DNA of 48,019 bases, taken from contig CAYTKJ010000001.1 in NCBI GenBank assembly GCA_964438675.1, positions 1 through 48,019 on the forward strand. Reading direction: 5' to 3'. Each line of letters starts with the position of its first letter. The first letter of the stretch is position 1. A program made the translations under genes and the position numbers. Source of the stretch: an uncultured Candidatus Saccharibacteria bacterium. GTDB lineage: Bacteria; Patescibacteriota; Minisyncoccia; Phycocordibacterales; Phycocordibacteraceae. The notes below the pieces were generated by a model, which was not told the DNA's origin, made no database searches, and worked only from the letters and a program-made list of their open reading frames with translations. Of the stretch, positions 18,320-45,619 are shown piece after piece.

Positions 18320-18353
18320 TGTGAGCCGCCTCCCAGATTCGAACTGGGGACCT
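18320..18353 (-). repeat. Orphan copy of the tRNA-Thr 3' part (variable loop, T arm, acceptor 3' strand, plus a 4-nt trailer)
   Basis: 34 of 34 nt are identical to 18450-18483. The sequences diverge immediately on both sides. Confidence 0.9.
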
Positions 18354-18453
18354 GAGATTTACTTCCGTGTGAGTGAGGAGAATAGGCGCTTGCGCATATT
18401 CTCGAGTGAACACTGGAAGCAAGATTTTAGTTTCTAAAAGCTTACATCCTGTG

Positions 18454-18526
18454 AGCCGCCTCCCAGATTCGAACTGGGGACCTTCGCTTTACAAAAGCGT
18501 TGCTCTACCAACTGAGCTAAGGCGGC
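18454..18526 (-). tRNA. tRNA-Thr (anticodon UGU)
   Basis: Hand-folded cloverleaf: acceptor GCCGCCT/AGGCGGC, D arm GCTC-AGTTGGTA-GAGC, anticodon loop TTTGTAA, T arm CCCAG-TTCGAAT-CTGGG, discriminator U. 73 nt, with no encoded CCA. Confidence 0.9.
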
Positions 18527-18630
18527 TCACAGAATGCAAGGCGTTGCTCGTCCCACTTTTGGCCAGCCCTTTCGGGCGGCCAATGCCATTATATGGCACC
18601 AGAAGAAAAGTAAAACCTATTACTTTTCTT

Positions 18631-18649
18631 CCAACTGAGCTAAGGCGGC
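18631..18649 (-). repeat. Orphan copy of tRNA-Thr positions 1-19 (acceptor 5' strand to D loop)
   Basis: 19 of 19 nt are identical to 18508-18526. On the minus strand it is followed directly by an 11-bp perfect hairpin. Confidence 0.85.
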
Positions 18650-35814: not shown

Positions 35815-36268
35815 CGATTGATCTGACACGCCGTACATGCCGCTCTTCGTTAGAAAACGGAGTGCTTAAAAAACGAGTAACTGCCTCCCACGCCTCAACA
35901 TCTCCTACAAAACCAGCTCCTACAGATAACACATTCGCGTTATTGTGCTCGCGTGCGAGCGTTACGATCTCTAGATTTCCGCCAGTATAGAGAGCGGCAC
36001 GAACACCGCGCACTCTGTTTGCGACCATTGCTTCTCCCTGTCCTGATTTTCCAAAAATAATCGCGCATGCCTCGGGCTGAAGTGCACTGACTGCCGATCG
36101 AATGATCCCAGGATAGTCGTCGCTAGGGTCGAACACTGATGGACCGTAATCGGTCGTCGTATATCCCGCATCCACAAGACGCTCATGTATATATTTTTTA
36201 CGCTCAAAGCCCGCATGGTCAGATGCAAGCAGAACAGAACTAAAGTTACTTTGCGGCGCTAATGACAT
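35807..36268 (-). CDS. rpiB: Ribose-5-phosphate isomerase B
   Basis: LLASDHAGFERKKYI, IIFGKSGQGEAMVANR and ARFLSTPF-type C-terminus. The start is uncertain, because the track ORF overlaps the gap 3' end. Confidence 0.82.
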   Translation of the reverse strand: MSLAPQSNFSSVLLASDHAGFERKKYIHERLVDAGYTTTDYGPSVFDPSDDYPGIIRSAVSALQPEACAIIFGKSGQGEAMVANRVRGVRAALYTGGNLEIVTLAREHNNANVLSVGAGFVGDVEAWEAVTRFLSTPFSNEERHVRRVRSIDE

Positions 36269-37262
36269 GGCGGTAGAGTGTTGAAACATATCCCCACTCG
36301 TTATCGTACCAAGCACACACCTTTACCAGCGTACCGCCAACAACACGAGTGAGTGAAAGGTCTGCGATCGCTCCGTACGGCATACCGACAATGTCTGAAG
36401 AAACTAGATCCTCGTCTGTTGTCGTAAAAATACCTTCCCACCGATGGTCAGCAGCCGCTTTTCGCAATAGCGCGTTTACCTCTTCCTTGCTCGTCGCACG
36501 CTTTGCGACAAATGTGACGTCCACTAGGGAACCGGAGACCACTGGTGCACGTATAGAAATACCATCAAACTTCTTTTCTAACTGCGGGAGTGCCTTTGTC
36601 ACTGCAATTGCCGCACCGGTCGATGTAGGTACTAAGTTTTGTGCACCAGCGCGATACTCGCGTTTATTGTGCCCTTTCGTCAATCCATCTACCAATGCTT
36701 GGGACGCTGTATAGGCATGGGTGGTGGTGAGAAGCGCATGCTCTATCCCGAGCACACCATCAAGAATAGCCATTAGCGGTGAGCCAGCATTTGTGGTACA
36801 TGATGCATTCGACGAGACGGAGCAGGTTTTTAATTTTTCTTCATTGATACCAACGAGTACCGTCGCACCTTCACCATTTGTGTCTGCGTCTTTTGCAGGA
36901 GCAGTGAGTACGACGTGCTTTGCGCCGCCAACTAAATGTCCCTTTGCTTTTTCAAAGGTATCAAAAAAGCCCGTCGCCTCTATCACCACCGCAACTCCTA
37001 AATCCCTCCAGGGGATTTTTGCAGGGTCCTTTTCTGTGGTTACTGCCACGTGTTTAGTACCCGCAACGAGCACTCCATCTTTAGACAAAACTTTAAACGG
37101 TGCCGTACCGTACGTGGTGTCATATTGTAAAAGATAGCGAAGCGATGCTGCGTCAGACAGGTCGTTTACTGCAACAACCTCAATGTCAGACTTATCGTAC
37201 GCGTACCTAAAAAAAGCTCGCCCAATACGTCCAAATCCATTAATACCAACTTTAATAGCCAT
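36246..37262 (-). CDS. gap: Type I glyceraldehyde-3-phosphate dehydrogenase
   Basis: KVGINGFGRIGR, the SNASCTTN catalytic Cys, and WYDNEWGY. Confidence 0.93.
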   Translation of the reverse strand: MAIKVGINGFGRIGRAFFRYAYDKSDIEVVAVNDLSDAASLRYLLQYDTTYGTAPFKVLSKDGVLVAGTKHVAVTTEKDPAKIPWRDLGVAVVIEATGFFDTFEKAKGHLVGGAKHVVLTAPAKDADTNGEGATVLVGINEEKLKTCSVSSNASCTTNAGSPLMAILDGVLGIEHALLTTTHAYTASQALVDGLTKGHNKREYRAGAQNLVPTSTGAAIAVTKALPQLEKKFDGISIRAPVVSGSLVDVTFVAKRATSKEEVNALLRKAAADHRWEGIFTTTDEDLVSSDIVGMPYGAIADLSLTRVVGGTLVKVCAWYDNEWGYVSTLYRHVISAAK

Positions 37263-37288
37263 AGCTAAAGTATAGCGTATGTATTTTG

Positions 37289-37359
37289 TTGCGGGAGCAC
37301 GATTCGAACGTGCGTCCCAAGGTTATGAGCCTTGTGAGGTACCACTCCTCCATCCCGCT
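37289..37359 (-). tRNA. tRNA-Met (anticodon CAU), with an unpaired 1:72 as in initiators; elongator Met or Ile2 not excluded
   Basis: Hand-folded: A1, GCGGGA/TCCCGC, D arm GAGG-AGTGGTA-CCTC, anticodon arm CAAGG-CTCATAA-CCTTG, 4-nt variable loop, T arm GCACG-TTCGAAT-CGTGC, A72 A73. No encoded CCA. Confidence 0.85.
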
Positions 37360-37374
37360 GTTTGAATAATAGCT

Positions 37375-37617
37375 CTATTTCTTAAATAATTCAAGAATTG
37401 CGCTTTTACTCTTGAGTGACTTCAGATACCTCTCATGCCTCATAGCATCTGCCCGAATGGCAAATTTTTCGTTATGCACCAGCCTCCAGGGGCCGCGCCT
37501 GGCGGCCCAACCATTTCGCGATCGATCATTATGCTCTGCAATCCGAATTTTGAGATTGTTTGTTGATCCAATATAAAACCTCCCATCATCATTTTCTAAA
37601 ATATACACACTGAACAT
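37375..37617 (-). CDS. GIY-YIG nuclease family protein (small, YhbQ/Slx1-like)
   Basis: FSVYILENDDGRFYIGSTNNLKIRIAEHN carries the GIY..YIG signature. 80 aa from MFSVYIL. AT-rich. Its stop lies 15 nt upstream of tRNA-Met position 1. Confidence 0.8.
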   Translation of the reverse strand: MFSVYILENDDGRFYIGSTNNLKIRIAEHNDRSRNGWAARRGPWRLVHNEKFAIRADAMRHERYLKSLKSKSAILELFKK

Positions 37618-37619
37618 CT

Positions 37620-37664
37620 GGTTATGAGTTCCGACGTGTCGGAATACCACTCCTCCACCCCGCT
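37620..37664 (-). pseudogene. Degenerate second copy of the tRNA-Met 5' half
   Basis: Minus strand AGCGGGGTGGAGGAGTGGTA matches tRNA positions 1-20 at 19 of 20 (1-21 at 20 of 21, because the first base of the palindrome is also a match). A 16-nt palindrome TTCCGACACGTCGGAA follows, and then CTCATAACC matches the anticodon-loop region 32-40 at 9 of 9. It ends 2 nt before the GIY-YIG ATG. Confidence 0.75.
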
Positions 37665-37671
37665 ACTCGTG

Positions 37672-37700
37672 AGTGTACGCCAATTTTTATATAAAATCAA
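37672..37700 (-). promoter_or_regulatory. Candidate sigma70-type promoter upstream of the tRNA-Met fragment
   Basis: Minus strand TTGATT - 17 nt - TACACT, ending about 7 nt before position 1 of the tRNA-like fragment. It overlaps the stop codon of the upstream ORF. Confidence 0.3.
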
Positions 37701-38487
37701 ACTCTTCAAACACCTGCTCGTAGAGTTTCATAACACGAAATGCTTCGCGTTGTGTCAGGATAAAATTCGAACTCTTTTGTACAACAAAGTTCCGAATGCG
37801 ATGCGCCTCCCATGCATGTGGGAGCGTCACAAACGCACCATCAGGCACAGTGCGTAACTGCTCTGCAGTTGTCATACCACTATATCCAATTTTAGTTAAC
37901 AGCTCACCGAGCATGGCATCGGCCACTACCAGAGCTTCGCGCCAGCGCCTTGGTTCAGGAGCCATCGCCGCGTTAAGCAAATCCTGCCAACGACTCCATC
38001 CATACGAGTTTCCAGTTGGGCGTGGTGGAAGTGTGCCCGAGTTACGCCAATCTTTAATTCTGATCAACACTAACAGTACACACACAACAACAAGCGCACT
38101 CAGCAACAGACCTGCAATTGAGTAAGACACTACGGCAAATACGCTCCACACAAACTTGAACACTGGCCCTAAGACGTGCACCGCACTGTCTAATGCAGTC
38201 AGTAGTGGTTGTGGCACACCGGACAAAAACCAGCTCGCATCGCTTGCTGTCGCACCCACATCTGCACTCGTACCACTACCAAAAGGCCACAGCCACGACC
38301 AAAACCCTGCGGACGTTGTCGCGGACTGTATCCCATCAATAACCACCCCCGGTACCACATCAGGAAGTACTGGTGCACTGTCTGCGCAACGCGCTCCAAA
38401 CAATGAAGCAAGCCAGCAATAGATATACTGCCAATTAATAAACGGGATACGCACCGCTTCTACTGCAGCGAGAAAATCTACACTCAT
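37687..38487 (-). CDS. Hypothetical membrane protein
   Basis: 266 aa with several hydrophobic segments and a soluble C-terminal domain (WREALVVADAMLGELL ... AWEAHRIRNFVV). ATGA overlap with the gatA stop. Confidence 0.6.
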   Translation of the reverse strand: MSVDFLAAVEAVRIPFINWQYIYCWLASLFGARCADSAPVLPDVVPGVVIDGIQSATTSAGFWSWLWPFGSGTSADVGATASDASWFLSGVPQPLLTALDSAVHVLGPVFKFVWSVFAVVSYSIAGLLLSALVVVCVLLVLIRIKDWRNSGTLPPRPTGNSYGWSRWQDLLNAAMAPEPRRWREALVVADAMLGELLTKIGYSGMTTAEQLRTVPDGAFVTLPHAWEAHRIRNFVVQKSSNFILTQREAFRVMKLYEQVFEEFDFI

Positions 38488-45586: not shown

Positions 45587-45619
45587 AAAAATCCCCATCC
45601 CGCGTTCGGGATGGGGATT
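45587..45619 (-). terminator. Strong rho-independent terminator after the first pilin gene
   Basis: Minus strand AATCCCCATCCCG-AACG-CGGGATGGGGATT (13-bp perfect stem) followed by TTTC, 15 nt after the pilin stop. Confidence 0.8.

Follow-up and report, generated by a model that had tools for sequence, protein, structure and literature searches.

The window analysed here is a stretch of 48,019 nucleotides (nt) from contig CAYTKJ010000001.1 of an uncultured Candidatus Saccharibacteria bacterium (assembly GCA_964438675.1), and it harbors a minimal nuclease gene of the GIY-YIG type that is placed between a partial and an intact copy of tRNA-Met. All coordinates of this locus are window positions on the minus strand. 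Read on that strand, a promoter-like site is followed by a 45-nt 5' fragment of tRNA-Met, the 80-codon GIY-YIG gene, the intact tRNA-Met(CAU) and the GAPDH gene. The promoter-like site, TTGATT-17-TACACT, spans 37672-37700 (−35 box at 37700-37695, −10 box at 37677-37672, read in the sequence) and ends 7 nt before the fragment (37620-37664). Only 2 nt (AG) separate the fragment from the ATG of the nuclease gene (37375-37617, ATG at 37617), and 15 nt lie between its stop codon and the tRNA (37289-37359). This layout and its coordinates had been described in an earlier note made from the sequence alone, and a renewed reading, ARAGORN, Rfam, Pfam and blastn agree on them, confirming the arrangement of tRNA-Met fragment, GIY-YIG gene and intact tRNA.

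The first 20 nt of the fragment (37664-37645) match tRNA-Met positions 1-20 at 19/20 (blastn E = 5.8e-4, the sole such match in the whole window), and its last nine (37628-37620, CTCATAACC) match positions 31-39 at 9/9. Between them, in place of the 10 nt CCTCACAAGG of positions 21-30, sits a 16-nt palindrome with 7-nt arms, TTCCGAC-AC-GTCGGAA (37629-37644). The match of the 9-mer taken alone is not significant (E = 8.7) and is collinear with that of the 20-mer. The intact tRNA is called by ARAGORN and by the Rfam tRNA model (57.9 bits, E = 1.5e-11), and its cloverleaf fold has an energy of −27.4 kcal/mol (z = −2.4). It carries an A1-A72 mismatch and a short D-loop, and with its CAU anticodon, an elongator Met, an initiator and a lysidine-type Ile tRNA are all candidates for its identity. 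No tRNA-Met 3' fragment was found downstream of the locus, and no second GIY-YIG copy was found in the window. The palindrome likewise occurs once in the 48-kb window, and its reading as a dispersed repeat was rejected. A longer open reading frame (ORF) from GTG 37650 (91 aa), which would span the fragment, was also rejected: its frame is not kept in the orthologous locus of a relative (L093, described below), which has one extra base between fragment and ATG, and the start is thus ATG 37617.

Residues 2-71 of the 80-aa protein match the Pfam GIY-YIG domain (PF01541, E = 4.5e-14), and its best matches among solved structures are PDB 1zg2 (E = 2.4e-7) and 1ywl (E = 3.7e-7; residues 4-72), together with a weak match to SLX1. 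Y5, Y15, G17, R25, H29 and E62 are invariant in 159 homologues, among which the catalytic Tyr, Tyr, Arg, His and Glu are 99-100% conserved. The protein consists of the catalytic domain alone, with no auxiliary or DNA-binding domain in Pfam or NCBIfam, and it matches no NCBIfam equivalog. Judged by its sequence, it is a minimal UPF0213/Slx1-type GIY-YIG domain with the full set of catalytic residues. This family comprises at least 3,330 clusters at 50% identity (E <= 1e-3), mostly of 80-120 aa with a few read-through doublets, and UPF0213 has been placed in the “Slx1 cluster” of minimal GIY-YIG domains, which is of unknown function and, by that account, mostly inherited vertically (Dunin-Horkawicz et al. 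2006, PMC1564403). In the PHROG collection the window protein has no match, whereas its L093 orthologue weakly matches “homing endonuclease” PHROGs (E = 4e-6 to 1e-3) in a chromosomal context. A defence or toxin-antitoxin module was considered and dropped, as PADLOC and toxin-antitoxin searches gave no convincing match and only a marginal one to PDC-S14 (E = 9e-4 to 1e-2). An intron-encoded origin of the ORF fails: even at E <= 10, Rfam shows no group I or II intron family within 36800-38200, the ORF is flanked by just 2 nt and 15 nt, and the downstream tRNA is complete. The base composition of the gene is that of a foreign sequence, with a guanine plus cytosine (GC) content of 42% against 50% for the window; the ORF lies 8-11 points below its host. 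Within this otherwise AT-rich ORF, a GC-rich hairpin, GGGCCGC-GCCTG-GCGGCCC (37490-37508), encodes WAARRGPW and has a weak Rfam match resembling a frameshift element; L093 has a partly similar sequence at the same place (GGCCTC...GAGGACC).

The same site was then compared among relatives, whose syntenic contigs were found via homologues of a membrane protein that is conserved in Patescibacteria. In the window, this upstream neighbour (266 aa, 37687-38487) holds the −35 box of the promoter-like site in its last codons, and together with the downstream GAPDH gene (“gap”, 36246-37262) it provides the synteny anchors. The relatives keep the order ligA, gatC, gatA, membrane protein, X, GAPDH, rpiB, where X stands for the site in question. 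In L095, L096 and L179, X is a single plain tRNA-Met in the same orientation as in the window, and the tRNA of L095 is identical in sequence to the intact tRNA of the window. In L094, L181 and L182, X is a single plain tRNA-Met in the opposite orientation; the gene is inverted together with its promoter, a flip within conserved synteny. L097 has an extra gene with a plain tRNA behind it. The sole occupied relative is L093, which carries AGCGGGATGGAGGAGAGGTA, TTCCGAC-GA-GTCGGAA, CTCATAACC, AAG and then the ATG of an 81-codon GIY-YIG gene, followed after 21 nt by tRNA-Met. The orthologous site is thus polymorphic among the eight syntenic relatives: it is occupied in the window and in L093, and empty in L094, L095, L096, L179, L181 and L182. 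GatA places the window, L093 and L095 equidistant from one another at 84-85% identity, with the remaining relatives more distant. The site thus occurs in an empty form, and the cassette was acquired in the lineage of the window and L093 or close to it. The comparison shows the putative insertion to lie in what the relatives have as a single tRNA-Met gene, in agreement with the insertion into tRNA-Met that the earlier note had supposed. For a housekeeping member of the family, conserved synteny and vertical descent would be expected (PMC1564403). Although the protein is UPF0213/YhbQ-like by sequence, neither expectation holds, as the gene is absent from 6 of the 8 syntenic relatives and its homologues adjoin many different tRNAs. 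The nuclease gene is not a housekeeping gene here.

The empty sites also bear on transcription. TTGATT-17-TACACT scores 8/12 and falls under the threshold of the promoter scan, yet the same geometry (TTGATT, 16-17 nt, TATACT or TATAAT, 7 nt, tRNA +1) precedes the plain tRNA-Met of L095 (TTGATT-16-TATACT) and of L179 (TTGATT-16-TATAAT), which speaks for the promoter candidate first picked out in the earlier note. Furthermore, GTACACTCAC, which lies 5' of the window fragment, matches the sequence 5' of the tRNA in L094, L181 and L182, which places the fragment in the promoter context of the ancestral gene. The 3' context of the intact tRNA is ancestral too, as L095 has the same ACAAAAT. TTGATT-17-TACACT is probably the ancestral tRNA-Met promoter, now placed before the fragment and the nuclease gene. 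It had been argued that no room was left for a separate tRNA promoter and that the functional tRNA would be transcribed through the nuclease gene. This part does not stand, as a second promoter-like site, TTGAAT-17-TATTAT (37366-37394, 9/12 in the scan), lies within the 3' end of the nuclease ORF, 6 nt before the tRNA. At the equivalent place, L093 has ATGACA-17-TATACT, and CGGTATACT is duplicated there before both tRNA copies. The intact tRNA thus has a candidate promoter of its own, and co-transcription through the nuclease gene would be possible without being required.

The comparison with L093 further indicates that the fragment is not an eroding remnant. It is identical at 41/45 positions (91%), as compared with 63/71 (89%) for the functional tRNA, and the palindrome arms are identical at 14/14 while the 2-nt centre differs (AC versus GA). 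Over the same divergence, the spacers are 38-50% identical, which is the chance level, and the proportion of differing synonymous sites (pS) is saturated at 0.69-0.82. As 41/45 positions are kept under these circumstances, the fragment is not decaying, and the claim that the displaced 5' half was left to decay has to be given up. Fragment and palindrome appear to be under constraint and to form a functional part of the arrangement; for the palindrome type at tRNA-Met, covariation rests on the two sequences of the window and L093. The nucleases themselves are 63% identical in nucleotides and 51% in protein, with a pN/pS (pN, the nonsynonymous counterpart) of 0.37, indicating purifying selection that is weaker than that on GAPDH or GatA (84-85% identical). 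A metagenome scan for further occupied tRNA-Met loci gave none closer than 51% identity.

The position and conservation of the fragment raise the notion that it is mainly a regulatory leader, either a hairpin that stabilizes or attenuates the mRNA or an RNA antidote that would counter a nuclease which is potentially toxic and transcribed from a strong tRNA promoter. Conservation would in that case stem from the control of expression, in the manner of an addiction module, and not from mobility. The strong conservation of fragment and palindrome, their location directly between promoter and ATG, the capture of a tRNA promoter by the nuclease gene and the occurrence in homologues of pseudo-tRNA hairpins at the mRNA 5' or 3' end would all be expected of such a leader. 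The RNA folds of the leaders are, however, no better than those of shuffled sequences (z = −1.3 for the window, −0.15 for L093), and the minimum-energy structures differ between the two orthologues, for which reason a stable RNA structure was rejected. A 2-nt centre is unfavourable for an RNA hairpin, there is no terminator-like T run and no PADLOC or toxin-antitoxin match, and in mirror-image loci the palindrome follows the ORF or brackets the unit of tRNA and ORF. A leader as the main function of the fragment is, consequently, very unlikely. Less credible still, to the point of being nearly negligible, is a chance likeness or a neutral relic, that is, a housekeeping gene beside a tRNA with a meaningless leftover. 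It could draw on the insignificance of the 9-nt match by itself and on the mostly vertical inheritance described for the family (PMC1564403). Against it stand a 20-mer match that is significant and continued by a collinear 9-mer, the retention of the fragment across saturated divergence, and the layout itself, which recurs in dozens of loci. The possibility raised in the earlier note, that the 45-nt stretch might prove unconserved or not significantly similar to a tRNA, is thereby answered in the negative.

This recurrence was followed in scans of species-representative genomes (80 loci) and metagenomes (80 loci), of which 159 loci were analysed. The first two homologues with the layout, L002 at tRNA-Glu and L012 at tRNA-Gly, have a 5' fragment cut by GC-rich hairpins, then the ORF and then an intact tRNA. 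A search for small GIY-YIG ORFs next to tRNA genes, as had been suggested, found a same-strand tRNA within ~150 nt of the ORF in 94/159 loci (34/80 from genomes and 60/80 from metagenomes). The homologues are thus not scattered over positions unrelated to tRNA genes; most adjoin one. All adjacent tRNAs (110/110) lie on the strand of the ORF, and tRNA density near the ORF is 1.99 per kb, versus 0.093 per kb beyond 400 nt, a 21-fold difference. In 38 of the first 80 loci the ORF stands between direct repeats that exceed the 99th percentile of a cross-locus null. Opposite the adjacent tRNA, across the ORF, there is usually a partial copy of it that bears a GC-rich palindrome specific to the clade. 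The arrangement is seen with other tRNAs in homologues that are only 40-50% identical, and it extends to more than 15 tRNA species and many phyla. Two layouts can be distinguished: the window type, with partial 5' copy, ORF and intact tRNA, and its mirror image, with intact tRNA, ORF and a partial or full pseudo-copy in which a hairpin replaces the anticodon arm. One complete and one partial tRNA copy are present as direct repeats at the ends of the element, and the last codons of the ORF often enter the downstream tRNA or pseudo-tRNA, stopping at the TAG of its D-loop. Protein clusters track both tRNA species and layout: one cluster holds 19 tRNA-Glu loci, and Val(GAC), Asn, Gln(TTG) and Arg(ACG) each have a cluster of their own. 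Switches occur within clusters as well, as in cluster 18 (Gln, Tyr, Ser), and Gly(GCC) is found in both layouts with the same hairpin. It seems best to regard the window locus as belonging to a widespread, apparently undescribed family of cassettes associated with tRNA genes. In the full texts searched, a set that leaves out most subscription journals, no account of small GIY-YIG genes with tRNA fragments on their flanks turned up, and a prior description is possible.

Across the family, perfect GC-rich palindromes show a 5-8 fold enrichment in the region from −200 to +100 nt around the ORFs. Each protein cluster has palindromes of its own sequence, in which compensatory changes in the arms preserve the symmetry, as in GGCCGAC/GTCGGCC versus GGCCGAT/ATCGGCC, in TCCCGCC/GGCGGGA versus TCCCGCT/AGCGGGA, and in a third series (CGCCAYGTC, CGCCCTGTC and CGCCCTATC, each with a matching right arm). 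The window type, TYCCGAC-NN-GTCGGRA, is also found in L117, L136, L166 and L131, at other tRNAs, and L063 has the same arms with a 9-nt centre. In one cluster, four different tRNAs carry a two-hairpin module precisely within their T-loop box, between TTCG and AATCC. Many palindromes have centres of 0-2 nt, which hints at a role at the level of DNA; the loop statistics are not decisive, since the loop lengths of ORF-proximal palindromes, compared in order to distinguish DNA sites from RNA hairpins, differ only weakly from background.

The unit of ORF and intact tRNA often has tRNA pieces with palindromes on either flank, and in L020, L021, L041, L109, L135, L162 and L170 identical palindromes bracket it. 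This suggests an alternative in which the element undergoes true transposition or site-specific integration and the nuclease cuts the palindrome as its cis site. The cassette would then be cut out, or form a circular intermediate, and re-enter at a palindrome-like or tRNA “att” segment, or staggered cuts ~40-120 nt apart would be filled in, leaving a long duplication of the target that includes part of the tRNA. The covariation of palindrome and protein clade with compensated symmetry fits this proposal, as do the very short centres, which are expected for the DNA sites of dimeric proteins, and the topology, which equals that of the att duplications of integrase-type elements (PMC9897764). Two loci, L031 (2357-2520) and L135 (1825-1910), moreover have tandem ORF-less units behind the intact tRNA, each composed of GGTTCG, the two-hairpin module, AATCC together with the 3' end of the tRNA, and a short flank; these look like non-autonomous copies of the hairpin module and could be counted on the same side. 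However, transposases or recombinases of the GIY-YIG type are not known, and a domain of 80 aa lacks ligation chemistry. Insertion points and the lengths of the duplicated segments vary widely (tRNA positions 20-76), the window has its palindrome on one side only, and the loop-length distribution near the ORFs is little different from background. Transposition or integration proper is, on balance, unlikely, although it retains some weight.

The only other tRNA of the window, tRNA-Thr(TGT) (18526-18453, minus strand), has the same kind of flanks (18321-18649), without a nuclease gene. A 19/19 copy of its positions 1-19 (18649-18631) is followed by a hairpin-rich insert of ~85 nt, which includes GAAGAAAAGTAA-TAGGTT-TTACTTTTCTTC, TGCCATATAATGGCA and GGCCGCCC-GAAA-GGGCTGGCC. 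Behind the insert lie tRNA positions 22-30 and then the intact tRNA; after a further spacer of 99 nt, the 3' end of the tRNA is repeated at 33/33 positions (18353-18321). The relative L183 has one plain tRNA-Thr, and L184 has the same tripartite layout; its insert is ~95% identical, and the first hairpin shows a compensatory change. A 12-codon micro-ORF (18359-18397, minus strand) is embedded in the conserved spacer that separates tRNA-Thr from the 3' fragment. The window has MRKRLFSSLTRK and L184 has MCKHLFSSFTRK, the two differing at several synonymous positions; the micro-ORF might encode a leader peptide or be coincidental. A strong hairpin elsewhere in the window (45593-45616, CCCCATCCCG-CGTT-CGGGATGGGG, with a TCCCG...CGGGA core) has no tRNA-like flanks and might be a terminator. 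Homologues that are not beside a tRNA have repeats of another kind: REP-like sequences, CCTTCGACAAGCTCAGGATGA / GTCCTGAGCTTGTCGAAGGA, flank L033, L034, L036, L038, L047, L052-L054, L061, L064, L069, L075, L077 and L082. These loci come from sphingomonads, Ignavibacteria, Chloroflexi and Dehalococcoidia, and the repeats are thus shared between phyla. The pseudo-tRNA-Arg copies of L134 hold an inserted 24-nt motif that is similar to them.

Where both flanks of an element are preserved, their alleles can be compared with that of the tRNA between them. In L020, L131 and L170, the upstream 5' acceptor strand pairs with the downstream 3' strand better than either pairs with the intact tRNA. The flanking pieces are thus the two halves of a single, resident gene, and the tRNA that stands intact between them is another allele, as would be expected if the cassette had supplied it. 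At the tRNA-Thr locus of L184, the 3' fragment is the allele of the empty relative L183 and the intact tRNA is a different allele. An explicit check of the acceptor halves failed for L021, and an automated test of flanking halves was mixed, with several registers failing and with acceptor stems identical in all copies at five loci. Identical copies, such as those of L162, fit either transfer between near-identical genomes or local duplication. Tandem ORFs are present in 12 loci. In L123, L134, L137, L141 and L142 the paired ORFs are 92-100% identical, which suggests unequal crossing-over, whereas other pairs are only 28-53% identical, which indicates separate, independent insertions at one tRNA.

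The locus is, probably if by no means certainly, the occupied site of a selfish cassette of ~0.3 kb that lives in tRNA genes; this degree of confidence applies to the explanation as a whole, and any single mechanistic step deserves less. A functional tRNA is kept, a tRNA promoter has been captured, the fragment, the palindrome and the catalytic residues are conserved, the association with tRNAs is clade-specific, and insertions have occurred repeatedly. The homing-type cassette restoring its tRNA that was proposed earlier is largely upheld by the insertion itself, by its recurrence at other tRNAs and by the ancestral promoter context, but not in the supposed decay of the displaced half. The proposed cycle would begin when the nuclease breaks a cassette-free tRNA gene, in it or next to it. 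The break may then be repaired by recombination from a cassette-bearing copy, with the tRNA-derived flanks as homology arms. As the cassette would supply the tRNA or its missing part, the host would keep an essential gene and could not easily lose the cassette, while the captured tRNA promoter would drive the nuclease gene. Fragment and palindrome would be kept by selection, possibly as a homology arm, as a cis site or immunity patch for the nuclease, or as a hairpin at the mRNA end. The palindrome might also split the direct repeat into pieces too short (here 6 + 13 and 9 nt) for RecA-dependent deletion of the cassette.

Several observations weigh against a selfish cassette. The tRNA-Thr locus has the fragment layout without any nuclease gene, and 65/159 homologues, mostly of other clades such as the sphingomonads, are not beside a tRNA. 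Only two tRNA-Met loci are occupied, and since their nucleases are 51% identical they may share one old, vertically inherited insertion, so that mobility at this locus is inferred from the pattern of the family and not directly seen. The intact tRNA is identical to the empty-site allele of L095, and if the tRNA is the target, this identity leaves self-immunity unexplained. That the 80-aa protein cuts DNA, and where, is a prediction; it lacks the DNA-binding domain of characterised homing endonucleases, and its nearest structural relatives, UPF0213 and Slx1, are not known to be sequence-specific enzymes. In L162, finally, the copies and 20 nt of upstream flank are identical, which fits local duplication as well as import.

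This last point leads to a further alternative, in which the nuclease gene is a resident. A tRNA-linked nuclease would now and then break the neighbouring tRNA gene, unequal or microhomology-mediated repair would produce local tandem duplications that later erode to partial copies, and empty sites would result from deletion between these repeats. The nearly identical arrays, the identity of copies and flank in L162 and the uniform acceptor stems at five loci are as this alternative predicts, segmental amplification of this type has an experimental precedent in the phage endonuclease SegB (see below), and recombination between direct repeats would restore a clean single tRNA, such that the empty sites could be losses. 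It is less easily reconciled with an association that extends over more than 15 tRNA species and is specific for clades while switching within them, as in cluster 18, or with the stacking of nucleases of 28-53% identity at one tRNA. The empty sites include all of the more distant syntenic relatives, the intact tRNA allele differs from the flanking halves in L020, L131, L170 and L184, and the base composition of the ORF is foreign. A resident origin is, for these reasons, improbable, though it merits serious attention.

If the selfish-cassette explanation is extended to the family, the UPF0213/Slx1-like mini-GIY-YIG genes would largely be the nucleases of unrecognised, ~0.3-kb selfish “tRNA-gene replacement cassettes” that split a resident tRNA gene, retain its pieces as recombination arms bearing a clade-specific palindrome, supply their own tRNA and thereby make the host dependent, and hijack the tRNA promoter; ORF-less hairpin versions, such as that at tRNA-Thr in the window, would be non-autonomous derivatives. 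This generalization is tentative, and somewhat more doubtful than not. If true, it would give a function to a large structural-genomics family for which none is known, and the cassettes would be among the smallest autonomous selfish elements known in bacteria. It would also account for many partial or pseudo tRNA calls and for tandem tRNA-ORF arrays in Patescibacteria and other phyla, and would extend to bacterial chromosomes the link between GIY-YIG nuclease, tRNA-gene breakage and amplification that was recently shown for phage SegB. Clade-specific palindromes and 80-residue nucleases could yield very compact enzymes that are specific for DNA sequence or structure. In annotation, such loci should be labelled as cassettes and not as “hypothetical protein + tRNA”.

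The earlier note could match the arrangement to no described element. No identical element was found in the present comparison either, but close analogues exist in SegB, in att-type duplications and in fungal mitochondrial cassettes. The nearest relatives by structure, the UPF0213/YhbQ/Slx1-like proteins represented by 1zg2 and 1ywl, share the size of the window protein and its lack of any extra domain; they are described as mainly vertical, whereas the gene studied here is patchy among close relatives, tied to tRNAs and compositionally foreign. Integrase-borne islands and prophages in tRNA genes are bounded by attL and attR, with one complete and one partial tRNA copy (PMC9897764). The present locus differs in that it has no tyrosine or serine recombinase, consisting of a single 80-codon ORF between conserved housekeeping genes, in its length of ~0.3 kb versus 10-100 kb, in the duplication of either the 5' or the 3' part of the tRNA, and in the palindrome within the partial copy. 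GIY-YIG genes have also been reported in non-intron inserts of rRNA genes of the Candidate Phyla Radiation (CPR; Tsurumaki et al. 2024, PMC11270868). They come from the same host group, and in both cases a GIY-YIG ORF lies in a structural-RNA gene within an insert that belongs to neither group I nor group II introns; PMC11270868 makes no mention of tRNA genes.

With free-standing homing endonucleases in general, the window locus shares presence or absence at an orthologous site and a conserved target gene, and it differs in having no DNA-binding module. A closer parallel is found in fungal mitochondria, where Paquin and colleagues reportedly described, in 1994, cassettes of a free-standing endonuclease with a replacement gene end, such as the atp6 element of Allomyces. 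There too, an endonuclease gene travels with a piece of its target that rebuilds the gene, and the displaced resident piece stays behind as a fragment. Those cassettes target protein-coding organelle genes and have larger nucleases, and their displaced piece decays, whereas it is conserved here.

SegB, a protein of ~220 aa with a C-terminal DNA-binding region, offers the most instructive comparison. It is a free-standing GIY-YIG endonuclease of T4/T6-like (T-even) phages that resides in tRNA gene clusters of many isotypes and cleaves inside tRNA genes at the T-loop box, with a motif, RAWTSGAAC, that is the complement of this box (PMC13096335). Its action yields tandem repeats of tRNA and segB, which arise when the 5' end of the tRNA recombines with the 3' end of segB (PMC13096335). 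SegB is phage-encoded, while the window protein is a bare UPF0213/Slx1 domain of 80 aa on a bacterial chromosome, and SegB loci have not been described with palindrome-bearing pseudo-tRNA flanks or with a split in a single essential host tRNA. The two systems nevertheless have in common the GIY-YIG domain, the free-standing gene without an intron, the co-localization with tRNAs (21-fold here) and the formation of arrays. In the present family, the ORF 3' end abuts or overlaps the tRNA 5' end, and one clade places its hairpin module exactly in TTCG|AATCC. SegB is the closest known analogue and the best experimental precedent for the tRNA-associated cassettes described here.

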